From positions 1 through 64,000 of IMG/VR virus record IMGVR_UViG_3300012344_000001: a DNA stretch of 64,000 nucleotides. The stretch is one strand, 5' to 3'. A program made the translations under genes and the position numbers. The notes beneath the pieces were generated by a model. The model ran no database searches and was not told where the DNA came from. It worked only from the letters and a program-made list of their open reading frames with translations. How positions within the stretch are numbered: the first letter of the stretch is position 1; the number at the start of each line of letters is the position of its first letter. Below, piece by piece: positions 10,413 to 62,066 of this stretch. Source of the stretch: a virus. Its lineage: Duplodnaviria; Caudoviricetes.

Positions 10413-10723
10413 TATTCAGACACCTCCTCGGCAACGGTTTCATCAGCCGGAATGACAGTATCGGTCATCATTATAACATAATCAAGGTCAGCGCGCGCGG
10501 CGTTGATGCGCTCATTGATTTCGTCAATGCCCGCTTCGGAAATCACAACCTTCGGGCAACCCTTCAGCTTGCCAGCGTCAAAGCTATAAGCAACCGACTT
10601 AAAGGCAACACCCTGCGCGTCTTCCTTATTGGTGGGAACAAAACAGCCATTAGAACTGCGCTTGATATAGTTGAGTTCTTCGGCGTAGCCAAGGAAGTTT
10701 CCGTCAGAAAACAACTTATACAT
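10412..10723 (-). CDS. XkdW-like tail fibre assembly protein
   Basis: ADLDYVIMMTD C-terminal motif; precedes the XkdX-like gene. Confidence 0.55.
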   Translation of the reverse strand: MYKLFSDGNFLGYAEELNYIKRSSNGCFVPTNKEDAQGVAFKSVAYSFDAGKLKGCPKVVISEAGIDEINERINAARADLDYVIMMTDTVIPADETVAEEVSE

Positions 10724-11885
10724 TATAGAAATCCCTCCTTCTAATTGTCAATAAGTCATCATATCTAAAACCAAACGTTTTAACAAACAGCCGTTTCAGT
10801 CTAAAAGAACGGTTGTTATCATTAAAGTTGTCAAAATATGATATTATAGAATTCATCGAACAGTAAACATCTTCATATTTCATCTGCCCGCTATCCACCA
10901 TGCGCTTAAAGGCGCGAATTTTCCTTGCGGCGCGTCTATACGCCGGCTTACTTCCAAGCGTTTTAACGCCGCCAGTTTCAGTAAGCCGGTAGCGTATTTT
11001 ACAATACCGGAAAGATTTTGTAAGCTTTACATAATACGATTTGTCGCGGTTTACCTTTATTCCAAGTGATTCAGCAAAAGATAAAACCTTCATACGAATA
11101 TCCTGCGGATTCATCGTCGGTGGTATTATGATATAATAATCGTCCATATAATGACCACAGCCCTTAAATCCACATTGACACGTTAAATAACAATCGAGTT
11201 TCCATGGAAAGAAAATCATTTCCGCTTGACTTGGTTCTACGCCAAGCGGCATACCGAATCCAGAATTGTTGTTAAATCCAACAACATAATCACATAGTTT
11301 TCGCAGTCTTTCGTCAAAAATCAATTCTTTGTGATTTTCGTATATATTTTCGTGCTTTGCATTTGGGAAAAATTTCTTAAAATCAATTAGAAGCACCCAA
11401 CCTTCACGACCGTACTTCTTGAAATGTTCGCGCAAATCTTTCTTCAACTCATTTGAACTGAAGTGGAAACCTTTTCCTTTTTGACTTGCTCCGTTATTAT
11501 AAATCATCATTGGCGTATACAACGGCAAAAGAATATTCTGCGTGATAGCTTTATGTATTTGCCTATCAACAATTTTAGGAGCATCGATATCGCGCGTCTT
11601 TCCGCGTTCGGTCAGGACAAATCTGAAGTAGTCACCGCTTTTCCATTCGTCGTTTCTAACATTCGCCAAAGATTTTGCGGTAGTAGAAAACAAGTGCAAT
11701 TCAAAGTTTTGCACACTATGTTTCCACCGAACGCCATTACAACATTCTTTGCCACATTTATACATATCACCAAACGTAAACGCGCCATCAATTCCACCAA
11801 TGGATTCACAGCGCTTAATTTTGTTTAACAGACGTTTTTCTTGGCGTCTCTGATAGCGCGCTTCGCGCCTTTGCATACTGTTCAT
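10716..11885 (-). CDS. DGR reverse transcriptase
   Basis: ERGK.R, DFKKFF, GMPLGVEPSQ and YMDD motifs; no maturase/HNH extension. Likely start MNSMQRREARYQRR at 11885 (ORF track extends to 11957). Adjacent to TR and avd. Confidence 0.95.
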   Translation of the reverse strand: MNSMQRREARYQRRQEKRLLNKIKRCESIGGIDGAFTFGDMYKCGKECCNGVRWKHSVQNFELHLFSTTAKSLANVRNDEWKSGDYFRFVLTERGKTRDIDAPKIVDRQIHKAITQNILLPLYTPMMIYNNGASQKGKGFHFSSNELKKDLREHFKKYGREGWVLLIDFKKFFPNAKHENIYENHKELIFDERLRKLCDYVVGFNNNSGFGMPLGVEPSQAEMIFFPWKLDCYLTCQCGFKGCGHYMDDYYIIIPPTMNPQDIRMKVLSFAESLGIKVNRDKSYYVKLTKSFRYCKIRYRLTETGGVKTLGSKPAYRRAARKIRAFKRMVDSGQMKYEDVYCSMNSIISYFDNFNDNNRSFRLKRLFVKTFGFRYDDLLTIRRRDFYNV

Positions 11886-12109
11886 AAATAAAATACCCCG
11901 CGTACAAGACTTGGAATAACCAATCCCGCATAGAACACTTGCATAATCGTTACACATGAAATCGGATTTGCCTTCCGACCATGCAAGAAGCGTCCGTGCA
12001 ACGATATCGCGGGGTTGTTTTGGAAGGAATACACCTTCACGGGAAATGTTTCTCCTTTAATAAGGGTCGTAAAACTTTCAAGAAGTTTTTGATTAACCCA
12101 ATGCTATCG

Positions 12110-22446: not shown

Positions 22447-22601
22447 CACTAACTGTTACTTTAATGACCACTTTCGTGGCGGGAACGGAACTTCCAAGGT
22501 AATTATTTCATACCGCCCATTCCTCTCACACTTGGTTCTTCGCGAAACTTATCAGTGTGAGGTCAGACTGTCGCATCCGCACCTAAGTGCAGTTTCTTCA
22601 T

Positions 22602-23528
22602 TCAGTCGTTCATCGTGGATTCCATTAGTTGCAAATCTGCATATTCATTATATAACAATCCGCTCAAATCGTTATACACATAAGAAGAAGAATGATATGA
22701 CATAAGTGCCAATGGTGTTTTAATAAATTCGTCTATAAGGCAAGAAATCAATTCCGGGCTTTCGTCAATGTCTTTTTCCCACAAATACAATATCTTTGTA
22801 TTTTCTCTATTTTCAACATCTTCTTTCTTTTTTCTATCTTTTTCAACAACACCATCTGTTATTTTAGAATCGCTTGGACTTATATGCCTTCTTACGTCAC
22901 AATGGAAAAATCCGCCCATAATTTCTATAAAAAGATTATATTTTGGCAAATATATGTCCATCGAATATCTTCCGCTTTTCTTTTCTGGTTCATATTCTAT
23001 CTTATTATCTTTTAATATGTTAAGGACTTTAATGTGTGGTTTAGTCATTGTTGCCTTATATACACCATCGTGTATGTTTTTAATTGTATTTTCAGAACGC
23101 AATATGCTAAAGCAGTCGTCTGAACAAGTTTTAACATTAGCATAATATGTGTGATACTTTTTTCCGCACACAACACAAACACGCTCCTTTTTTATATTTA
23201 CATTCATGGTTTTACAATCCTTGGAACAACAGACATGATTGCTTTTCAAAGACATAAATTCCTTGCCACATATAACACAATTTCTTGGCGTTCTATGCTT
23301 GTCCGCATAATCCCACCTACAATCAGTCGAACAGAACTTTAGTTCGCCGTCGTGCTGTAATCTTGTTCCCATATATTCTTTCCCACAGTTCGCACAAACA
23401 TTTTTGTAATATCGTTTCGGACGCCTTTCTTCGTGATATTTTTGATTGCATTTTTCGCTGCAAAATCTTGTTTTATTTTCATCTTCAACATGCTTCCCGC
23501 AATAAGCACAATTAAATCTATGAATCAT
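22602..23528 (-). CDS. Intron-encoded homing endonuclease: tandem CxxC..CS..C zinc fingers plus Vsr/DUF559-like (EDxHD-type) nuclease domain
   Basis: Four zinc-finger repeats; YSMDIYLPKYNLFIEIMGGFFHCD; low GC; stop codon overlaps the intron P7 strand. Confidence 0.8.
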   Translation of the reverse strand: MIHRFNCAYCGKHVEDENKTRFCSEKCNQKYHEERRPKRYYKNVCANCGKEYMGTRLQHDGELKFCSTDCRWDYADKHRTPRNCVICGKEFMSLKSNHVCCSKDCKTMNVNIKKERVCVVCGKKYHTYYANVKTCSDDCFSILRSENTIKNIHDGVYKATMTKPHIKVLNILKDNKIEYEPEKKSGRYSMDIYLPKYNLFIEIMGGFFHCDVRRHISPSDSKITDGVVEKDRKKKEDVENRENTKILYLWEKDIDESPELISCLIDEFIKTPLALMSYHSSSYVYNDLSGLLYNEYADLQLMESTMND

Positions 23529-23548
23529 ATTATCCTCCTTTCTATTGT

Positions 23549-23577
23549 ATTATAACATAAAAAACAATATTTGTCAA
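23549..23577 (-). promoter_or_regulatory. sigma70 promoter inside TMP intron driving the endonuclease
   Basis: Exact TTGACA-N17-TATAAT followed by an AAGGAGG RBS. Confidence 0.85.
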
Positions 23578-23713
23578 TAGTGAGCGTATAATGAAATCCT
23601 TCGACCCTGTTACCCCTTTCGCGTGGGGCGTCCAAGCATCCCTTTCGGGAATCATTAGAAGAAATTTTTCTAAAGCGGTTTATTTATTATGCCGCTTCGA
23701 GAGCATAAAGTTC

Positions 23714-28858: not shown

Positions 28859-29617
28859 TTAGGACATCCAGTTCAAATCTTCTTTGATTTTATTAAAGCT
28901 GGATGATTCAATGTTACCGGCATAGTAGCCGAAACATACATTGTCGTAAGATTTTATCTTGTTGATACGCAACAAGCCGTCGAAGAACTGATACAAGTAC
29001 AAGTTATAGACATCTTCAAATGTTCTTCCCGTTGCCCACACAAGGCTGGAAATTTGCGGAGCAAGAAAGCTTTTGTGCCCACGCTTCAATTCGCGCTTAC
29101 GTTTCTTTCTTTCTTCATTCACAAGAAACTTCATTGTCGTGTCGTTACCCGGATTGTATTCATCTTTTTCAGACTTGTTGTTCATATCCATAAGATATTT
29201 ACGAATTTGCGTATAAACGCCAATATCTATCTTTGCACCAGTAGACGGGCTGATAAGCAGTAGGTCTTCACCTTCTGCCGACAACATGAAATCTTCTATG
29301 CCAGTAAGCCAGCCTATCTGCTTACTTACTTGGCTTTCGGGGTTCCACATTATGTTGCCATCATCGTCCCTTGTCAAAGTTTCACCACAAAGCATTATGA
29401 ATACGTCATAAGCCTTTGTGTTTCTATAATCAATTCCGCTGTCATATAGCTCGACCATTAGGTCTGACGGCTTCAGTGTAAAAATATTTATCGCTGAAAA
29501 AACAAAGCTTTCGCCAAGTTCAATCACGTCGCTGATTTTAGGATGTCTGACCGTCAGATTGCCAAGCACAAGCGGCTTGCCAAGAAGAAGGTCAAGATTA
29601 TCCACAGTCGACACCAC
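28859..29617 (-). CDS. Tail assembly protein (SPbeta YomV-like)
   Basis: P.ISDV, YNPGND and L.LYQFFD...RI motifs; synteny. Confidence 0.55.
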   Translation of the reverse strand: MVSTVDNLDLLLGKPLVLGNLTVRHPKISDVIELGESFVFSAINIFTLKPSDLMVELYDSGIDYRNTKAYDVFIMLCGETLTRDDDGNIMWNPESQVSKQIGWLTGIEDFMLSAEGEDLLLISPSTGAKIDIGVYTQIRKYLMDMNNKSEKDEYNPGNDTTMKFLVNEERKKRKRELKRGHKSFLAPQISSLVWATGRTFEDVYNLYLYQFFDGLLRINKIKSYDNVCFGYYAGNIESSSFNKIKEDLNWMS

Positions 29618-32774: not shown

Positions 32775-33896
32775 TTAGACCTTCTGAATACCGAAGTGCG
32801 CCTGAGTAGCAATAGCGGCGTCGAACGCCATGAAATACTGATACTCGCGACGATTGATGCTGTTGTTGGAAGCGGGGGTATTCATGACGCGGATGTAGTT
32901 TTCGCGAACCAGCTTCACGGGCTTGTCGCCAACATCGGGCATCAGGAAAATCTTGTCGTTGGGAACCAGCATGTTGACATTACCATCAGCATCACCAAGC
33001 GGCGCGGAACCGTCGGTAGCCTGATTCAGAACAACGTGAGGAATACCATAGGCGACAGGCAGGAAGCCAAGACGAAGAACTTCGTCCTGAGAAGCGAAGC
33101 CGTAGCCGGTGGTAGCGGTAGCACCCATCTTGTTAAGGGCGGGAAGCGTACCATAAGCCTTAACACCAGCATTGTTCAGAGCCTGAAGATAGGAAATGGT
33201 CAGGGTGTAGTTGTTGGCATTGAAGGTGGAACGATACAGCGGGGTGTTGGTGATAAGGTCGGTATTGGCGACCAGACCAACGCACAGCTTGTACTGCGCA
33301 TAAAGCAAAGACATAACGACGCGGGCACTTTCCTTACCCATGTCAATGTCACCCTTCAGCATACGGATAACGTCGATGGCGGAACCGGTGCTGTAAACCT
33401 TCGGGGTAACAGTGATGGCGGTCTTCGCAACACCCTCAAGGAAGGTGACATTGCTCATGTAGCTGTTACGCTGCGCAATGGGCAGACCCTTGGTCTCAAT
33501 GTCATAGGTCAGAGAACCACCGATGTCAACAGTATCGACATTGGCGAAAACGTTCATAGCCTGCGAATCGGTCTTGACCATGATACCAAGCAGAGATTCG
33601 GTAAAGATGGCGTTATACATAGACTCAAAGGTGGGATTATCGAAAGCATTCAGGATGTGACGAGTCTCGGTAATCTCGGAAATGCCAGCCTTGGCGCCAC
33701 AGTAAGAAAGAATAGCCTTGCGGGTTTCATCATTCTTCTGATTGTAGGCAGCAGAGTCATAGGAGAACTTGGTGACAAGACCGCTGGAAGCGTAGTCACG
33801 CGACATCGCAGAAAGACCCAGTTCGGTCAGATTGTCGATGATATTCTTGGCGTCGACATCCTTAGAGATGCCAGCGAAATAACGAAGTTCGTTCAT
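32775..33896 (-). CDS. Major capsid protein
   Basis: 373 aa, strongly biased codons, GDKPVKLV.E motif, located after the scaffold and decoration genes. Confidence 0.8.
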   Translation of the reverse strand: MNELRYFAGISKDVDAKNIIDNLTELGLSAMSRDYASSGLVTKFSYDSAAYNQKNDETRKAILSYCGAKAGISEITETRHILNAFDNPTFESMYNAIFTESLLGIMVKTDSQAMNVFANVDTVDIGGSLTYDIETKGLPIAQRNSYMSNVTFLEGVAKTAITVTPKVYSTGSAIDVIRMLKGDIDMGKESARVVMSLLYAQYKLCVGLVANTDLITNTPLYRSTFNANNYTLTISYLQALNNAGVKAYGTLPALNKMGATATTGYGFASQDEVLRLGFLPVAYGIPHVVLNQATDGSAPLGDADGNVNMLVPNDKIFLMPDVGDKPVKLVRENYIRVMNTPASNNSINRREYQYFMAFDAAIATQAHFGIQKV

Positions 33897-33918
33897 TATA
33901 GTGAATCCCCCTTTCTAA

Positions 33919-34449
33919 TTAGTCAACAACGGTCGCGACAACCGTGTCGATGAACTGGTAGCCGAACATACCGCCCATGCGGAAATGCTTCTGCGCCAGC
34001 ATCATAAGAGCAGACTTGGTGGTAGCAGTACGGGTCGCAGCAACCTTACCGGTATAAGCGCCGTCAACGGGCTCAATGTAGCTACCAGCAGCGAAAGCGC
34101 CGTCAATAACGTCAGTAGACAGTTCGAAATCAAGACCAGGAACCAGCATGATAGCAGTCACGACCTCGCCAGCCTGATAAACATACTGGGTGTAGTCGGG
34201 CCGACCCTCGGGACGACGACCGTCGGGAAGAGTCTCAAAACCGTCATTGATGATGATAGCCGCACGCAGACCAAGGTCGGCGGTAGCAGGCTGGGAACCA
34301 GTGTAGACCTGATAGTTGTCGGCGATGCTGGAATCAAGCGCCTTCAGCATGACGATATCGCCAGCGTGCAGGGTCTTGCCAGTGGGGACAGAAACCTTCT
34401 TGACAAGGTAATCAGGAACGCGAGGATTAGTCGCGCGGCAAAGATAATT
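33919..34449 (-). CDS. Capsid decoration/head protein (YonC-like position), exon 2
   Basis: Frame open from 34449 (NYLCRATNPRVPDYLVKK...) with no own RBS/start. Joins exon 1 ATG GCT to give 178 aa MANYLCRATNP... Confidence 0.85.
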   Translation of the reverse strand, partial: NYLCRATNPRVPDYLVKKVSVPTGKTLHAGDIVMLKALDSSIADNYQVYTGSQPATADLGLRAAIIINDGFETLPDGRRPEGRPDYTQYVYQAGEVVTAIMLVPGLDFELSTDVIDGAFAAGSYIEPVDGAYTGKVAATRTATTKSALMMLAQKHFRMGGMFGYQFIDTVVATVVD

Positions 34450-34580
34450 CCGTTGTGTTAGTCAAACTAACTTACTGCTTCATCGAGCTCTTTTTCGCAA
34501 AAGCTACTAAAGTCTTACAGCCCTTCACAGCATAGAGGTGCAACGACACCTTTAGACTGCAATCTTTTAACTTAGATTGC
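34450..34580 (-). ncRNA. Putative TnpB omega-RNA scaffold; guide would be the first ~16-20 nt of exon 2
   Basis: About 120-nt non-coding tract after the tnpB stop (contains AGGTG..CACCT hairpin), ending ...ACAACGG at the splice site. Position is as established for TnpB omega-RNAs. Confidence 0.65.
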
Positions 34581-35717
34581 ATATCTACTCAGGTTGATAG
34601 CAGCATTGTAATCACGGTCGATTGTAAAGCCACACACTTCACATTCGTACACGCGGTCGCCAAGTTTCAAGCTTTGCTTTATGTTTCCACAGCAAGAACA
34701 AGTCTTACTGCTTGGATAGAAACGGTCAGCTTGAACAAATTCAATCCCGCGCCATTCGCATTTATATCGCATCTGTCTGACAAATTCATGAAAACACTGT
34801 TCCTTAATTGCCACACCCAAATGCTTATTTTTCATCATGTCGACAACATCTAAGTCTTCCATTACCACCCTTGCCGGTAGTTTAGTAACCAAAAAATGCG
34901 TCGCTTGGTGAATATAATTCATGCGAATATTTGAAACGCGTGCATACAACTTACGAAGTTTTGCTTCTTCTTTCATAATATTATTCGTCTTTACAAACTT
35001 GTTCCCAACTCTGTTCTGTTCATATTTGCGCGAAATTGAACGCTGTATACGAACTATTTCCTTCTTCAACTTGCGTATCCGACAAGATTTGTTAATATTA
35101 TGAAATACGATTTGGTCTTCGTTAAATTCTGCCACCGCTAAATCTTTCAATCCAAGGTCTATGCCCATGCTTACATCCGTTAATTTAAGTGCTTGATTTT
35201 CGCACATCATGCCAAAGGACAGCATCCACTTACCATTCTTATTTGATATTCGTGGGTTTGTGAACTTGTGTCCTTTCCCCAAAGGCAATTCAAAGTCTGT
35301 TTTATAACGAACCTTACCAATTTTTTCTATTGAAACTTTCATATCTGAAAACCAGATATTTTCACGAATTGGAAATCTTAGCCCGTTCGACTTTCGACTT
35401 TTGAACTTTGGGTAACCGGATTTTTTATTAAAGAAATTTTGGTATGCTTTATCAAGGTCAAGACATATATAGCTAAGGCTTTTATTAGAAACGTCATATA
35501 ACCAATCGTGCAGACCATCGTTCTTTAATGGTTTAAGTAAGCTTATCATTGAAAATCCAGACAGATATTTCCCGCCATTTTTATACAGTTCTTGCTGGTA
35601 TGCCAACATATAGTTCCAGACGAACCTACAAGCACCCGCATGGCTTAACATCTTCTGTTCTTGTTCTTTTGTTGGGTATAACCTTATCTTATAAGATTTA
35701 ATATACATCGTTATCAC
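34572..35717 (-). CDS. tnpB: RNA-guided endonuclease TnpB (IS200/IS605/IS607 OrfB)
   Basis: KIRLYPT..Q HTH, RuvC-I GIDLG, RuvC-II MEDL, Zn finger CSCCG/CEVCG, RuvC-III DRDYNAAINL; catalytic triad intact. Confidence 0.95.
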   Translation of the reverse strand: MITMYIKSYKIRLYPTKEQEQKMLSHAGACRFVWNYMLAYQQELYKNGGKYLSGFSMISLLKPLKNDGLHDWLYDVSNKSLSYICLDLDKAYQNFFNKKSGYPKFKSRKSNGLRFPIRENIWFSDMKVSIEKIGKVRYKTDFELPLGKGHKFTNPRISNKNGKWMLSFGMMCENQALKLTDVSMGIDLGLKDLAVAEFNEDQIVFHNINKSCRIRKLKKEIVRIQRSISRKYEQNRVGNKFVKTNNIMKEEAKLRKLYARVSNIRMNYIHQATHFLVTKLPARVVMEDLDVVDMMKNKHLGVAIKEQCFHEFVRQMRYKCEWRGIEFVQADRFYPSSKTCSCCGNIKQSLKLGDRVYECEVCGFTIDRDYNAAINLSRYAI

Positions 35718-35924
35718 CTCCTCTTATTAGTTATAAGAGGAGACGGTGGGAACATACCCCACCATGCTTCTTCTCCTTTATCGGGTCGCTACCCCGTGAC
35801 ACTCCGTTTCGGAGTCTTTGCCTTTCGGCAAAGCGCAGACTATATCTTCATCCTTTCGGATGCCCACCACAGTCTTCGCCAATCGCTTGCGAAGCACTTA
35901 GTCGTTGAACCTTCTGCATTTTGC

Positions 35925-35981
35925 ATTATAGCATATTTTACAACGCTTGTCAATACTTTAGTTGTAAATATTTTATGAACA
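35925..35981 (-). promoter_or_regulatory. sigma70 promoter plus upstream direct-repeat operator inside the intron P6 loop
   Basis: Exact TTGACA-N17-TATAAT (35925-35953); TGTTCATAAAATATTTACAA at 35962-35981. Confidence 0.85.
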
Positions 35982-36195
35982 AAATACAGCTTGGCTGCTG
36001 ATTGCCCATTACGGGAAGCGTTTAGGGTTTAACCTTGCGCCATCCGGTATATTTTTTCTACTTTCGTCGCCATCACGCTTAGGATTTAACCTTACGTTGT
36101 GGCTATACCGGCTTTAGGGGTTTCCAGCAATTCAATGGGTATTTTTATCGAACACATTTCTGTGAACGTGACCTATCGAACACGATGGTTCATTA

Positions 36196-36201
36196 AGCCA
36201 T
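36196..36201 (-). CDS. Two-codon exon 1 (ATG GCT) of the decoration gene
   Basis: Preceded by a GAAAGGA RBS just after the scaffold stop; followed by TAA, the first intron bases. Confidence 0.85.
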
Positions 36202-36225
36202 AATAATTCAACATCCTTTCTTTAA

Positions 36226-38070
36226 TTAGCGTACAATAGTATTGTACTTCTTAGCAATCTTAGCAAGTTCGCTATCGTTGCTTTCAGAACCGGCAAAACC
36301 GGTATTAACGCCCGGAAGACCATACGAGAACTTAAATTCGTTCTGCGCAGCCATCTCGGCGAATTCCATAGCGCATTTCGCAATGGCGTTGTCCATTTCT
36401 TCGCAAGTGCAAGTTTCCGCAAGCTTCTTCAGTTCGGCAATCTTTTCCTCGCTGAAGCACTTAGCGTACTTCTCAACGGAAGCCATGTTCTTGGCGCAAA
36501 CTTCCTTCTTTTCGTACTCGGCAAGAGCCGCGCACTTTTCTTCAAGTTCGGCACACTTGGCATCAAGCTCTGCACACTTAGCATCATAGTCAGCGCACTT
36601 CGCATCCAGTTCAGCGCACTTGCCATCAAGGTCAGCCTGAAGACCAGCGCACTTTTCTTCTGCCGCTGCACAAGCTTCCTCGGAGGCCGTCAGACTGGCA
36701 CACTTTTCGTCGAATTCAGCACACTTCGCAGTATACTGTTCCTCAAGCTCTGCATACTTCTGCTCAAAGTTTTCCATAGACAGACCAAGTTCGCGATAGT
36801 GACGTTCAAGATGCTTCTTAACGTCGCCACTTACAATTCCCATCTGAGATGCACGGGCAAAAGCAGCCTTAACGCCAGCCACATTAAGAACAAGCTTACC
36901 GTCCTTCACCTGATGGTGGGGATACTTCAGTTTTTCGCTTGGGGCATCTTTGTATCCATCTTCAACAACAAGATACGCTTCTTTCACAAGACTTTCGGCG
37001 TTACTTGCTTCAAGAAGCTTGCCGTAAAGCGCTTTGCCGGGATTATCCCAAGAAGTGCCTTCAACAGCCGCTTCCTTATCGTTGTCGATAGTAATGTTCA
37101 CTTCGCGATTTCCTCCTTCTTCAGAATTATTTATTGCTACGGCAGAACCGTTGCAAACAATAGAATTGACCCATTCACGACCAGCTTCGCCACCATACAT
37201 ATTATATAAAATGTATTTGCCGGTGGGCGGCGTGCTTTCTTTGACGGGTTCAGGGTTGGCGGCGAAGTATTCCTTCATTTCGTCAATGGAACCTTCATAC
37301 ATAGCGCCAATTTCGCAGTTGTTTCTAAGGCTGTTGTATACAACCTTGTTTCCACCACGATTAGCTTCTTGCCGCATTTCAATACCATGCTTCATAATGT
37401 CAAGAACATTTTCTGGAATTTCGTAAGCCTTCTGTGAAGCAAAACAGAAATACTTATCATTAGATTCCTTGGCATAGTCGTCATAGGAAAATCTAAGGGA
37501 CTTCAGTCTGGCGCCCTGCATGATTTCCCTAAACTTTTCACCAAGCGCGGTAATGGCGGTAATGTTGAATCTTTTAAGCTTCAACGCGCCATCTTCAAGC
37601 TGTTCCGCATCCTTAATAGCAAATTCAACAGAAACCTTAACATCGCCATCACGACGTTTCAGGATTTCAGCAACGTGCGGCAGAAGATTCTTCCACACAA
37701 CAACGTTGATTCGAAGATACTGCTTGCCGTCGCGTTCAACAAGCTTTGCGTCTTTTAAGCCACTTTCAGGGACACAGCCAAAAGGAAGAATACGGTCGCG
37801 CGTAATGCGGTCGGGATATTCTTCACGGAAATGTTCCATAAAGTCATTGTGTTCACCATCAAGCGGATTCCACTTGTTATCAATTACGCCATACAGCGGC
37901 TTATTAGCAAAGCTGGGAAGCGATTCCCAAACACAATCTTCGTCAATGATACATTCATTAGGATTCCAACCAGTATGAAGTGCATCAAGTTCAAAAACAG
38001 ACACATAAGGGTCTTCGTACAATAACTTCATATAGTCAACTTCATGGGTGAAGTTATCCATTTTGAACAC
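36226..38070 (-). CDS. Prohead protease/scaffold protein (YonD-like)
   Basis: NKPL, D..EH, PFGCVPES, VSVE and ITALG protease-like N-terminus; C-terminal coiled coil with KCAEL heptads. Confidence 0.75.
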   Translation of the reverse strand: MFKMDNFTHEVDYMKLLYEDPYVSVFELDALHTGWNPNECIIDEDCVWESLPSFANKPLYGVIDNKWNPLDGEHNDFMEHFREEYPDRITRDRILPFGCVPESGLKDAKLVERDGKQYLRINVVVWKNLLPHVAEILKRRDGDVKVSVEFAIKDAEQLEDGALKLKRFNITAITALGEKFREIMQGARLKSLRFSYDDYAKESNDKYFCFASQKAYEIPENVLDIMKHGIEMRQEANRGGNKVVYNSLRNNCEIGAMYEGSIDEMKEYFAANPEPVKESTPPTGKYILYNMYGGEAGREWVNSIVCNGSAVAINNSEEGGNREVNITIDNDKEAAVEGTSWDNPGKALYGKLLEASNAESLVKEAYLVVEDGYKDAPSEKLKYPHHQVKDGKLVLNVAGVKAAFARASQMGIVSGDVKKHLERHYRELGLSMENFEQKYAELEEQYTAKCAEFDEKCASLTASEEACAAAEEKCAGLQADLDGKCAELDAKCADYDAKCAELDAKCAELEEKCAALAEYEKKEVCAKNMASVEKYAKCFSEEKIAELKKLAETCTCEEMDNAIAKCAMEFAEMAAQNEFKFSYGLPGVNTGFAGSESNDSELAKIAKKYNTIVR

Positions 38071-38293
38071 CCCCAGTCGGTTTATTCATAGTCCAAACGT
38101 CAAGCAGCTTCTGAAGCCTGTCGGTAAGAATAAAAACCCAAACCACACGGTCTGTCTTAGACGAACGATACGAATACACGTATTCAATTCCGTTTTCAGT
38201 CAAGAACGCCTTCTGGTTCGGGCTTCCGCACCGATAAAACTTGAACTTTTCCGAAAGTTCGCCAATGTTTTCAATCCTCATAGCACCCACCAA
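38054..38293 (-). CDS. DUF5659-like small protein
   Basis: FYRC.S....FL.ENGI.Y...WVF...L..LL..W pattern. Confidence 0.55.
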   Translation of the reverse strand: MVGAMRIENIGELSEKFKFYRCGSPNQKAFLTENGIEYVYSYRSSKTDRVVWVFILTDRLQKLLDVWTMNKPTGGVQNG

Positions 38294-38772
38294 TCCTGCG
38301 CCTGCGCGTCCATATCGTAAAGGTGGTTGCCATACTGCTTCTTCTTATCAACAAGAAGAATGGCGTTGGCTACATATTTGGAATATTCGCGGGAAATCGG
38401 CGTCAAAAGGTCGTAGACGTTATGATTGCCCGCGTCTTTTGCGTCAAGCTTCACCTTTTGCAAGAAATCGTTCGTTTCAAGCGTCCATTCGTAAAGCTGA
38501 TTGATAAGCGAATCAACGTCTTCGTAGTCTTCGTTTGCGCCTTCAACGCCAAGATAATTGACGTCATAGTTGAAGTTTTCTTCAATATCATTCACTTGGT
38601 CTGCCAGAAGCGGATATGCGTGTGCAAGCTGGTGATGTACCAGTTCTGCAAGTTTCGGCATAGCAAACTTAACATTAAGAACAGACTTCATTCTGTCAAG
38701 CTTCTTGTTCATCCAAAAGAACTTCTGACCAAGCTGATCGAGTTCAATTTTGACTTCATTTGAAATAAGCAT
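38278..38772 (-). CDS. Hypothetical all-helical protein (possible ferritin-like fold)
   Basis: 164 aa, four long amphipathic helices, HHQLAH cluster. Confidence 0.4.
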   Translation of the reverse strand: MLISNEVKIELDQLGQKFFWMNKKLDRMKSVLNVKFAMPKLAELVHHQLAHAYPLLADQVNDIEENFNYDVNYLGVEGANEDYEDVDSLINQLYEWTLETNDFLQKVKLDAKDAGNHNVYDLLTPISREYSKYVANAILLVDKKKQYGNHLYDMDAQAQDWWVL

Positions 38773-47328: not shown

Positions 47329-49860
47329 TTATTCACCAACCGCTTCGCCAGTATAACTAATCATACTATACCGCTTACCAAGGTAGGCATATTCGCCAGT
47401 CGGATTTTTTACAGGCAGTGCAATTTCCACCTGTTTGATATTTTCAAGTACGCCTTCAGAAGCACACGACCAAATGAACTTCTTGCCGCGCTTCGGATAC
47501 TTTTCGTAGCACAGCTTAACAGCAATGTTCGCAAGTTCCTTTTTGTCTGGACAAAGCTTCAAGCATTCATTCCTATACTTCGAATACACGGAATCCCAGT
47601 TCACATAGTAGTTCATCGCCGATTCCTTATCCCATGCCTTCAGTTCGTCTTTGAATTCATCGTAGCGATGAAGCTTGTTTTCGAATGTGACAAGGTACTT
47701 CATTTCCTTGTTGAAGTCCTTATACACGCCTTCGATTGCTTCGAAGTGTTCAGGCGAAACTTCTACGCTGTCATCAACCATGATTGTGTAGTCAAAAGCA
47801 TCAGCGCGTTTCCACTTGATTTCACGGTCGTGGAACTTTTCAATCATGAACGCAAGCTGATTCATGTTACTACGGGCGCGGCTAAAGCGATATGTGCTTT
47901 TAGTGCGTTCCATTGATTCAAATAGCCTATTGTAGTATTCACCAACATACCGCATGAAGTATGGATACGGTTTTGAATACTTAGCAATCTCGAACGGAAT
48001 CTGCATGATATACCCAGTCTTCGCGAAGTCGATTGCGAACGAATTAACGATTGAAAGAATGTCGACGTAGGTTTCGTATCGCTTCTGTTGTGTTTCCTTC
48101 TTCGTGATTTTGTTGTGATAGCACGTTGCCGCATTTGAATCTTCGCCAATCAGCGAAACAAGTGTCCGTTCAACGAGGCTTGCAATGTTTTCGATTGTGA
48201 TATCTTCTGCAAGCGCAGTAAGCTTTTCGTCGAGATTAAGGACGATTGCACAATCCTTGTCAGCGCCTTCAAGAAATAGTGGTTCGTCCATCAGCAGAAC
48301 CAAATCTCCGTCATAGTCAGCTCCGTTCATTCGCTGTGGACTTGGGCTTTTGCCATTAAGCATACAAGTGTTCACCAAGTGACCACAATATCGTTCAAGT
48401 TCTTCTGTGTTTTTTGCCTTCAGAATAAGATGTTCGCTTTTGCAAATGTGCGGATTTCGTTCAATCGCGTGTTCGCCTTCATAGCCCCTTGCCCAAAATT
48501 CATCGGCTTCAAGCGCGCCCTTTGGATTCTTGTCTCCACCAATCCATTCAAGCATCATGATGATGTCTGGAATCAAAAACTTGTAGCAAGCGCGAAGATA
48601 AATCTTGCCACACTTCATGCTGTCAATGTACTTCTTAACTTGACGCTTCAAGAAGTCGCGGACACTTTGTTCCTTCATCATTTCAGGATTCTTCATAATG
48701 GCGCGCGCATAATTATTAAGCGGCTTAGGATTGTCATTCGCCAAACCAAGGAAGCAATACGTGTAGAACGTGTCGCCATTAACAATCTTTTCAGCCCAGT
48801 TCATCGACTTAGACGCAAGCTTTTGGAATTCTTCGAAGGGCAAATCGAGGTCTTGCAGAATCTGATAGTTGCCGCGCGTATACACCGGTTCCTGTTCTTC
48901 TGTGAAATTCCACTTTGCAACGCCCCAGCAGTGTCCATACTTCTGGAACTTGCTCCAGTAGTTGTCCCAATCTTGGTATGTGCCAGTCTGTTTGAAATAC
49001 TTGAAACCCTTGTACATACTGACCGTCAGCACAATCATTGGTTCGTCAACGGAATGCCACTTTCCCCAGACGTCTTGAATGAATTCAATGTCGTGGTCGT
49101 GATAGTATGTCGTGTAGTCAATTTCGCAGACAAGCCCCTTGATGAACGGAGCGCGTAGCATCATCGTTGTCGGACGTTCTTCCATTCCAATGCGGTCGCG
49201 AACTTCATCAACAAGCGCGGGGTGTATGAAGCCGTGTCCGTCAAAAACATTGATTGGAACGTCTTTATACCCTTCTTCAATGCCGTGTGTCTTCCAAACG
49301 CGCTTTTCGCCAGTTTCCTTGTCGGCGTATTCGCGTTCTTCTTCCACCAACCAACGAAGTTTCTGGTGCGGCACCACCGTTTCGTAGTCGGGCACGACGA
49401 TTGTTTTGGGATACCACCCGTCAAGACAATGACACGAACTAAACATAAGACCGCGATACGCGCACCACTTCGAAAGGACTGTCTTTTTCATTTCCAAGTC
49501 CATGGTGATATGCCTGTCGACTTCTTCAGCAACAGAAGCATCAATGAAACCAAGGATTGCGTTTCTTGTCATGCTGGCGCTTCGTTCGCTCATGACAAAC
49601 TTCACGCCGTTAAGCATGAAGCCGTCAATGACCATGTGTTTGATTTCTTCCTTCTTGCTTTTAGAACCGTTACAGTCGATAAACACAATATATGGCACGA
49701 AGATACCGATTCTTCCGGTAATGTTTCGCAAAAGGCGAAACATCATGTTGTCACCCTGCGAAACGGTATAGTCGGCGTTATTTATGCGCGCGTCATAACC
49801 ACTGTTGATTATTACGCTTGCGGGCAGCTTTCTGACTTTGTAGAGCTTTGGTGCGAACAA
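47329..49860 (-). CDS. yonO: YonO-like single-subunit DNA-dependent RNA polymerase (cellular RdRP/double-psi-barrel family)
   Basis: 843 aa; DG.G, R.PFIKG, RNPH and catalytic GADYDGD motifs; AIDFAKTG; upstream of the virion genes as in SPbeta. Confidence 0.9.
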   Translation of the reverse strand: MFAPKLYKVRKLPASVIINSGYDARINNADYTVSQGDNMMFRLLRNITGRIGIFVPYIVFIDCNGSKSKKEEIKHMVIDGFMLNGVKFVMSERSASMTRNAILGFIDASVAEEVDRHITMDLEMKKTVLSKWCAYRGLMFSSCHCLDGWYPKTIVVPDYETVVPHQKLRWLVEEEREYADKETGEKRVWKTHGIEEGYKDVPINVFDGHGFIHPALVDEVRDRIGMEERPTTMMLRAPFIKGLVCEIDYTTYYHDHDIEFIQDVWGKWHSVDEPMIVLTVSMYKGFKYFKQTGTYQDWDNYWSKFQKYGHCWGVAKWNFTEEQEPVYTRGNYQILQDLDLPFEEFQKLASKSMNWAEKIVNGDTFYTYCFLGLANDNPKPLNNYARAIMKNPEMMKEQSVRDFLKRQVKKYIDSMKCGKIYLRACYKFLIPDIIMMLEWIGGDKNPKGALEADEFWARGYEGEHAIERNPHICKSEHLILKAKNTEELERYCGHLVNTCMLNGKSPSPQRMNGADYDGDLVLLMDEPLFLEGADKDCAIVLNLDEKLTALAEDITIENIASLVERTLVSLIGEDSNAATCYHNKITKKETQQKRYETYVDILSIVNSFAIDFAKTGYIMQIPFEIAKYSKPYPYFMRYVGEYYNRLFESMERTKSTYRFSRARSNMNQLAFMIEKFHDREIKWKRADAFDYTIMVDDSVEVSPEHFEAIEGVYKDFNKEMKYLVTFENKLHRYDEFKDELKAWDKESAMNYYVNWDSVYSKYRNECLKLCPDKKELANIAVKLCYEKYPKRGKKFIWSCASEGVLENIKQVEIALPVKNPTGEYAYLGKRYSMISYTGEAVGE

Positions 49861-51384: not shown

Positions 51385-51739
51385 ATTATACCACAAAATG
51401 CAGCATTTGTCAAGCCCTTTTCGCAAATGTTCACAAAATGTTTACAATTACAAATCGCGCAGAAAAGAAAGAAAAAAGAAACAAAGAAAACTGATGTTCC
51501 CCCCTATAACCCCCTTCTTAGTAAAGAAATAAATAAAAAAGAAAGAAAAGAATATAACAGGGAATATTTATATACTTCGTTATTGTTCAAGAATAATAAA
51601 TTATTCTTTCTCAATAACTTCGTATATAAATATATATTATATATTATAGCAAACAGCAAACGATTTGTCAAGTCTTTCAAAATGTTCACAAAATGTTTAC
51701 AATTTACCTATTGACAAATCGAGAAAAATGTGTTATAAT
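51385..51739. promoter_or_regulatory. Divergent promoter region
   Basis: Exact TTGACA-N17-TATAAT at 51385-51413 (-), 51643-51671 (-) and 51711-51739 (+); two identical TGTTCACAAAATGTTTACAA boxes (51428, 51683); coding strand switches here. Confidence 0.88.
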
Positions 51740-59246: not shown

Positions 59247-59303
59247 ATTTTACCATACCAATTATGAACAAGTCATGAACAAACTGTGAACAAATTGTGA
59301 ACA
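59247..59303 (-). promoter_or_regulatory. Four TGTTCA direct repeats at 11-bp period upstream of an extended -10 (TG-n-TAAAAT)
   Basis: TGAACA at 59265, 59276, 59287 and 59298 on the + strand. Confidence 0.7.
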
Positions 59304-59420
59304 TTTTCAAGCGTGGAAAAACCGCGCTATATACATTATATATATAAAACGTCCCGCACGCCGCGCTTGCCATGTCCAGCGTTGCTATTAAAAAAACTAA
59401 TCGTTTTCCCTTATGCTATT

Positions 59421-62009: not shown

Positions 62010-62066
62010 ATTATAGCATATTCCCGCGCTGTTGTCAACCAGTGAATTGTAAACATTTTATTAACA
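62010..62066 (-). promoter_or_regulatory. sigma70 promoter with upstream direct-repeat operator
   Basis: Exact TTGACA-N17-TATAAT (62010-62038); TGTTAATAAAATGTTTACAA at 62047-62066. Confidence 0.85.

Follow-up and report, generated by a model that had tools for sequence, protein, structure and literature searches.

An interrupted head gene and its intron-less alleles

The window, the whole stretch of 64,000 nucleotides that was analysed, is the first 64 kb of an IMG/VR record of 107,954 bp, a phage genome with direct terminal repeats to which a near-identity search of GenBank phages returned no near-identical match. The locus considered here is a head gene that is split after codon 2 by an intron carrying tnpB. 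All features of the locus lie on the minus strand, and their coordinates are given in its direction. In this order, a 614-aa ORF (38070–36226) is followed by a ribosome-binding site (RBS), the codons ATG GCT that make up the coding part of exon 1 (36201–36196), the intron (36195–34450, 1746 nt), and exon 2 of the head gene (34449–33919), which was recognized by its homology to gp16 of Thomasclavelia phage TR-TP1 (46% identity for the exon 2 product). The predicted spliced head protein has 178 aa and an N-terminus reading MANYLCRATNPRVPDYLV... TR-TP1 gp16 has 185 aa with the N-terminus MAIKHFYC.., and its gene lies between a portal/large scaffold-like block and a capsid-like gene.

The bounds of the intron were set from intron-less alleles and from the N-terminus of TR-TP1 gp16. 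Contigs of close and of more distant relatives from the four public runs that were compared include alleles in which 36197/36196 is joined straight to 34449 (..ATGGCT|AATTAT..), so that the intron corresponds to 36195–34450, with the 5′ splice site after U36196 (ATG GCU|) and the 3′ splice site after G34450 (..CACAACGG|). Some intron-less alleles are near-identical to the phage and others are diverged by ~12%, diverged copies also being present among the contigs. The public-run material at the locus consists of assembled contigs, which cannot reveal transcript starts, ends or levels. No RNA reads spanning an exon–exon junction of this phage were found, and the joined exon forms may be DNA alleles. 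Because intron-less alleles circulate, natural targets for TnpB-guided homing exist; the predicted target sequence is ..TATGGCT|AATTATCTTTGCCGCG. The right end CACAACGG is kept in the relative L005, whose flanks differ. Across the TnpB-intron clade of L005, L006, L012 and the window, the 5′ exons end in GGCT, ATCT, ATCT and TGCT, and the right end is ..CACAACGG; with 5′ exons ending in ..CT and this right end, the clade thus has a target-adjacent motif unlike both published IStron groups. Two other placements of the bounds were rejected. IS607-style GG/GG bounds (ATGG|...CGG|) leave the empty site out of frame and are contradicted by the intron-less alleles, and a left end after ..ATTAT, a group A target, is excluded by these alleles together with the MA.. 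N-terminus of the homologue.

The TnpB cargo, the omega-RNA and the predicted guide

The tnpB gene (35708–34572) encodes 378 aa from the ATG at 35708, with the Pfam domains HTH_OrfB_IS605, OrfB_IS605 and Cas12f1-like TNB (PF12323, PF01385 and PF07282). The protein contains the RuvC motifs GIDLG, MEDL and DRDYNAA along with a zinc ribbon, and its top solved-structure match is TnpB 8iaz (E = 1e-70). Upstream of the start codon, a perfect 10-bp hairpin (35742–35718; CUCCUCUUAU-AACUA-AUAAGAGGAG) masks the tnpB Shine-Dalgarno (SD) sequence AAGAGGAGG. The hairpin region folds with -37.4 kcal/mol (z = -4.15), L161 (73% identity) has one like it, and TnpB translation may be restrained by the structure. 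At E <= 1e-50, this TnpB has over 5,800 protein matches, of which many come from contigs of 80–160 kb, suggesting that introns with TnpB are common among large phages of the gut and rumen.

Downstream of tnpB lies the omega-RNA scaffold (34531–34450), which begins with a RAGATH-18 match (34531–34472; Rfam RF03064, 46.3 bits), continues with the terminal hairpin GUUAGUUUGACUAAC, and closes with the end ..CACAACGG, a layout common to L004–L006. The end of the scaffold coincides with the 3′ splice site. The predicted guide (34449–34430; AAUUAUCUUUGCCGCG..) is therefore directly past the scaffold end, comprises the initial ~20 nt of exon 2, and would be severed from the scaffold upon splicing. There is no tnpA, as no ORF lies between the ribozyme and tnpB or beyond tnpB, and the 108-kb genome has just one copy of the intron/tnpB element; the element behaves as a TnpB-only intron.

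The group I ribozyme and its expanded P6 hairpin

The 5′ part of the intron is an IA2-like ribozyme, with P1 to P9 spanning 36205–35816 (Rfam RF00028, 85 bits, E = 3e-20). It has the features of a group I intron, namely the core P3–P9 with the Q and R elements, a U at the 5′ splice site and a G at the 3′ splice site. In the alignment to the Rfam model, the Q element is AAUCAGCAGCC and the R element is GUUCAACGACUA, and the intervening P6 loop contains a promoter motif. By RNA folding and comparison with relatives, P6 is an expanded hairpin (35989–35914), where the expansion amounts to 63 nt and the P6 of relatives at the same place is 20 nt. Its outer stem of 10 bp pairs CUGUAUUUUG with CAAAAUGCAG, the latter being the 3′ strand at 35923–35914, and its inner stem of 8 bp pairs UUUACAAC with GUUGUAAA, which leaves the -35 element in the terminal loop. 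The fold energy of the hairpin is -21.8 kcal/mol (z = -2.4). Because the expanded P6 still forms a hairpin, it does not conflict with folding of the ribozyme in long transcripts. The P5 region (36021–36111, minus strand) likewise holds an insertion, of ~90 nt, composed of two similar units (AAGGUUAAAUCCUAAGCG / AAGGUUAAACCCUAAACG) and kept in L005 and L006.

A consensus promoter in P6

The core promoter (35953–35925) comprises the -35 hexamer TTGACA (35953–35948), a 17-nt spacer, a TG at 35933–35932 and the -10 hexamer TATAAT (35930–35925). It thus combines a 12/12 hexamer match with a TGn extended -10 and is the sole site of such quality in 33500–38500. The initial annotation had reported an exact TTGACA-N17-TATAAT between Q and R, and the RF00028 alignment agrees, placing the full 12/12 motif in P6. 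An upstream box, AAAATATTTACAA (35974–35962), ends 8 bp before the -35 and may be an UP element or a regulator site. From promoter geometry, transcription is predicted to start 6–8 nt past the -10, at 35919–35917, which falls within the 3′ strand of P6.

A transcript from ~35918 would omit the 5′ exon, P1, P2, the 5′ strand of P3, P4, P5 and the 5′ strand of P6. Given established group I structure, an RNA without these parts would neither splice nor assemble the core alone, and the earlier claim that such a transcript lacks P1–P5 and cannot form the ribozyme follows from the start position. A ribozyme-less, unspliceable transcript carrying tnpB, the omega-RNA and the guide is therefore a logical consequence of the predicted start, to which a purpose can be ascribed as a hypothesis. 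The SD-sequestering hairpin lies ~175 nt downstream of the predicted start and is present in long and short transcripts alike, so that the short transcript would give no obvious translation gain. A contig from an RNA library, derived from a 92% relative, covers 35984–35605 and, as an assembled contig only, reaches upstream of the predicted start.

The P6 promoter is very likely real. We judge it almost certainly functional from its consensus quality, the upstream box that it shares with the phage's own promoters, its conservation in a copy with 85% TnpB identity, and the recurrence of such promoters in other introns. From the consensus, we assume that it would be read by the primary-sigma polymerase of the host.

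The same promoter type and box across the phage genome

Consensus promoters of this kind are frequent in the phage. The whole 108-kb genome has 17 exact sites (16–18 nt spacer) and 16 with one mismatch, and 29 of these 33 are on the minus strand; most start with TTGACAA and most have the TGn. Within the window, the motif with at most one mismatch gives 13 matches against 0.40 expected, and 9 copies of the consensus are exact, the P6 site included. Chance is thus no explanation for these matches, and the consensus represents the regular promoter type of the phage. Between ~51.4 and 23.6 kb, the minus strand has just two such sites with no more than one mismatch, the P6 promoter and a site at 29377 with a single mismatch.

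The box AAAATnTTTACAA stands exactly 8 bp before the -35 at the P6 promoter, at 51711(+) and at 62038(-). Its exact form occurs four times in the genome, and nine copies are found when one mismatch is allowed, as opposed to 0–3 in shuffles. Across 51385–51739, 59265–59310 and 62038–62066, a divergent promoter cluster has repeated AAAATGTT(T/C)ACAA boxes, and a TTGTTCA repeat array lies near 59.3 kb. This set of boxes and repeats looks like the operators for a regulator of the phage, and the box recurs in P6 of the intron. The exact 29-nt promoter string of P6 was found in no other IMG/VR record.

Distribution of the P6 module among TnpB introns

A relative with the same P6 expansion is L158 (85% TnpB identity), which was retrieved via its TnpB and hence independently of the promoter. 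Fourteen of the 78 P6 columns (18%) differ between the two; both hexamers and the TG are spared, and so are the box, its 8-bp distance from the -35 and the length of the spacer. The probability of sparing these columns is P = 0.0075 for the 21 promoter and box columns and P = 0.047 for the 14 core columns. The elements of a primary-sigma promoter are thus conserved in L158 against a diverging background. In comparison, the introns with 60–72% TnpB identity (L004–L006, L009, L011–L013, L159, L160 and L162) all have the minimal P6 of 20 nt, and in the two that were scanned, L005 and L006, no comparable promoter was found elsewhere. The short P6 of these relatives indicates that the expansion is recent in this TnpB lineage. 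TnpB introns lacking the module are also far more numerous, which argues that it is dispensable for the life cycle of the element.

Recurrence of the P6 promoter in endonuclease introns

An exact TTGACA-N17-TATAAT located 4–20 nt before the R element was found in 25 IMG/VR stretches belonging to at least nine sequence classes. These loci, as well as the intron L027, were picked on the hexamers, so that hexamer conservation among them is not independent evidence. A second IMG/VR sample was therefore drawn on P6 length alone (36–66 nt between Q and R), with only new loci being counted. On the sense strand of this sample, a score of 11/12 or more is reached by 12 of the 84 distinct P6 inserts, and five of them are perfect; at the same threshold, the antisense strand gives 0/84 and shuffles give 0.05%. 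In the introns that bear the promoter, the cargo ORF begins 70–260 nt past the R element and encodes LAGLIDADG, GIY-YIG/NUMOD3, I-HmuI-like (HNH-type) or treble-clef proteins, with no guide RNA. Since the same module occurs in these guide-less endonuclease introns, it is best read as a cargo promoter and not as TnpB-specific. Promoters in P6 are a recurrent feature of phage IA2-type introns with cargo after the core and would most likely be a general device.

The closest module outside the TnpB lineage is that of L027, a GIY-YIG intron, at 75% identity. The arrangement TTTACAA-N8-TTGACAA is kept in L158 and L027, the core promoter positions are invariant in both, and the P6 stem of L027 has a compensatory change from U-A to C-G. 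Ribozyme elements P3–P8 are 72–75% identical to those of L027 and L028, and the intron aligns with these two unbroken through P6, whereas its alignment with the short-P6 TnpB introns falls into two pieces that skip P6. Judged from these sequences, the module predates its association with TnpB. The near-invariant flanks at Q and R would permit exchange of P6 modules by recombination. The P6-promoter endonuclease introns L028, L030 and L045 lie within genes homologous to structural genes of the phage, namely its capsid-like gene and one other.

Relation to known introns and IStrons

Promoters inside group I introns have a precedent in T4, whose introns contain internal promoters for their endonuclease genes (1988 work, reviewed in PMC2988022, PMC3073962). 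In the td intron, the ORF and its control elements are located in the P6 loop (PMC2988022, PMC3073962). As in T4, the intron described here has a promoter that would give the nuclease a separate transcript inside the unit of the interrupted gene and with different timing, here by sequence only. The T4 promoters, however, are phage-specific middle or late types that stand in early genes and beside a loop-borne ORF, whereas here a host-consensus promoter stands in a late gene. In T4, transcription starts inside the hairpin that sequesters the RBS and thereby unlocks translation, while here the hairpin is downstream of the start and would not be bypassed. Also unlike T4, P6 contains only the promoter, and the cargo beyond P9 is an RNA-guided nuclease with its guide RNA.

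The element also resembles the IStrons CdISt1, BcISt1 and CboIStron (Tourasse 2014, PMC4227781; Zedaveinyte et al., bioRxiv 10.1101/2023.11.20.567912; NAR 2026, PMC13521648). It has the combination that characterizes an IStron, a group I intron with an IS200/IS605- or IS607-type tnpB and a 3′ omega-RNA. More specifically, it shares the 5′ IA2-like ribozyme, the tnpB, the omega-RNA ending at the 3′ splice site so that splicing removes the guide, and a CGG right end as in group B (IS607-type). It differs in having no tnpA and no multicopy spread, with one copy in the genome and a phage late gene as host, and in a 5′ exon ending ..GCU, which is neither GG nor a T-rich pentamer (group A, TTGAT/ATTAT/TTTAT; group B, ..GG). 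IStrons are described as balancing splicing against guide production by RNA structure and TnpB binding on a single transcript (IStron literature), and tnpA and tnpB are natively under one promoter in the NAR 2026 study (PMC13521648). A P6 internal promoter is not mentioned in PMC4227781, 10.1101/2023.11.20.567912, PMC13521648 or the 2026 OMEGA review PMC13565253.

Closest in architecture are the phage IA2 introns of the Twort/SPO1-like kind (L024–L048), which share the ribozyme family, the placement and direction of the promoter within P6, and a cargo located shortly past R. Their cargo is a protein-only endonuclease (LAGLIDADG, GIY-YIG, HNH or treble-clef), by which a short transcript is irrelevant to any guide. 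In the literature searched, which stopped short of the older SPO1/Twort intron papers, no description of a host-consensus P6 promoter arrangement was found. Internal endonuclease promoters are thus known from T4; what appears new is the host-consensus promoter in P6, its presence in many introns, and the ribozyme-less guide precursor that it would provide for a TnpB.

A probable promoter cassette for intron cargo

We consider it probable that the P6 expansion is a host primary-sigma promoter cassette that expresses the cargo independently of the late head operon. At the DNA level, the upstream box, the 8-bp distance, TTGACAA, the 17-nt spacer ending in TGn, and TATAAT would together act as a full-consensus promoter. 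At the RNA level, the cassette would refold as an extended P6 hairpin that the ribozyme in long transcripts could tolerate. The short RNA would open with the 3′ third of the ribozyme and continue through tnpB, the scaffold of the omega-RNA and the guide, and it would probably take in the downstream capsid-like gene as well. In this way, the mobility gene would be expressed independently of a late head operon that is presumably transcribed by a YonO-like polymerase. Such a polymerase is encoded upstream of the virion genes (843 aa, 47329–49860, minus strand; phrog_8308), the label YonO-like resting on its Pfam RdRP domain (PF05183), as no solved-structure match was found for this protein. In SPbeta, the late genes are transcribed by YonO. 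The host polymerase would then transcribe the cargo of a late-gene intron on its own schedule, from which a nuclease that cuts co-infecting intron-less genomes before packaging would gain. The module would have been acquired recently by this TnpB lineage, probably via recombination across Q and R. A benefit specific to TnpB would come in addition, as the short RNA would be unspliceable and its guide would stay on the scaffold, with full-length late transcripts still being able to splice. We infer promoter activity from the sequence of the motif, its structural context, its recurrence and its conservation; its timing and its effect on omega-RNA yield are expectations.

How far this TnpB-specific benefit explains the promoter is a separate question. 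The initial annotation proposed that it was selected to part the RNA fates in time, with TnpB and an unspliceable omega-RNA made early by the host polymerase and the head protein spliced late. Several features fit this proposal, including the predicted start downstream of P1–P5, the coincidence of the scaffold end with the 3′ splice site, the encoded YonO-like polymerase, the retention of the module in the 85% copy and the circulation of intron-less targets, and the competition between splicing and guide that it presupposes is documented for IStrons in the literature. However, the same module serves introns whose endonucleases are protein-only, where no guide needs protection, and the introns with 60–72% TnpB identity, members of a family with thousands of related TnpB proteins, manage without the module. 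In addition, published IStrons balance the two fates on one transcript, and the early and late timing would here be a matter of expectation. We therefore regard selection for temporal separation as rather doubtful. What stands of the proposal is a promoter that is very likely functional, while its purpose of resolving the conflict is called into question by the guide-less endonuclease introns and by the relatives that lack the module. Similarly, the split between host and YonO polymerases is plausible given the encoded YonO-like gene, its early/late schedule being presumptive. A further view, which we put forward tentatively as one possibility, is that the general P6 device was captured by the TnpB intron and is now its main source of intact guide. 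In that case, RNA-guided homing (early, by the host polymerase) and splicing (late, by the YonO-like polymerase) would each have a transcript physically separate from the other, with no competition on one.

The promoter could also mainly aid the phage, or retention of the intron, by driving host-polymerase transcription of the head/tail operon from the capsid-like gene onward. On the minus strand, no terminator-like site was found between the guide and the capsid-like gene, which has its own RBS, so the P6 promoter may equally serve downstream phage genes, and embedded promoters in T4 are reviewed as making endonuclease genes hard to delete. Yet intron-less alleles of this and related phages evidently persist without the promoter, and the module moves with introns sited in different genes, so that we consider this explanation unlikely. 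Least probable, and to our minds very improbable, is that the motif has no promoter activity today, having arisen incidentally in an AT-rich structural extension of P6 or survived from an earlier endonuclease intron. Group I introns do often have extended P6 regions, the RNA does fold as a hairpin, and P6 modules appear to have been swapped between introns. Nevertheless, a 12/12 match with TGn and a phage-specific box at the exact spacing is far above what composition yields in shuffles or on the antisense strand, and the 85% copy is free of any promoter substitution even though 18% of its P6 columns differ.

If a host-read cargo promoter in P6 does operate as proposed, the consequences reach beyond this element. 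Where the published view has one IStron transcript balancing its fates, an unspliceable transcript from an internal promoter would be a second, transcriptional solution. Given the recurring consensus promoters, the ribozyme helix P6 would also be selected as a DNA regulatory element, and it may be routine for the host polymerase to express, with a timing of its own, the cargo that introns carry in late structural genes. The short transcript that occurs naturally (5′ UTR, tnpB, omega-RNA and guide) would also define a compact expression unit for TnpB engineering.

Other elements in the window

Two further insertions, at 22.4–23.7 kb and 41.8–42.9 kb, were considered as introns and are not counted as confirmed, since a search of Rfam (E <= 0.01) detected no intron at either. 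The former is an insertion of 1.2 kb (22450–23690, minus strand) between ORFs of 614 aa and 1639 aa that together resemble one tape-measure gene, and it contains an exact consensus promoter (23577–23549) just before an ORF of 308 aa whose treble-clef match is weak. In the tail region, an RT-2 RNA (11875–12101, minus strand, 110 bits) adjoins a reverse transcriptase ORF (10716–11957, minus strand, phrog_1423), a pairing that is consistent with a diversity-generating retroelement.
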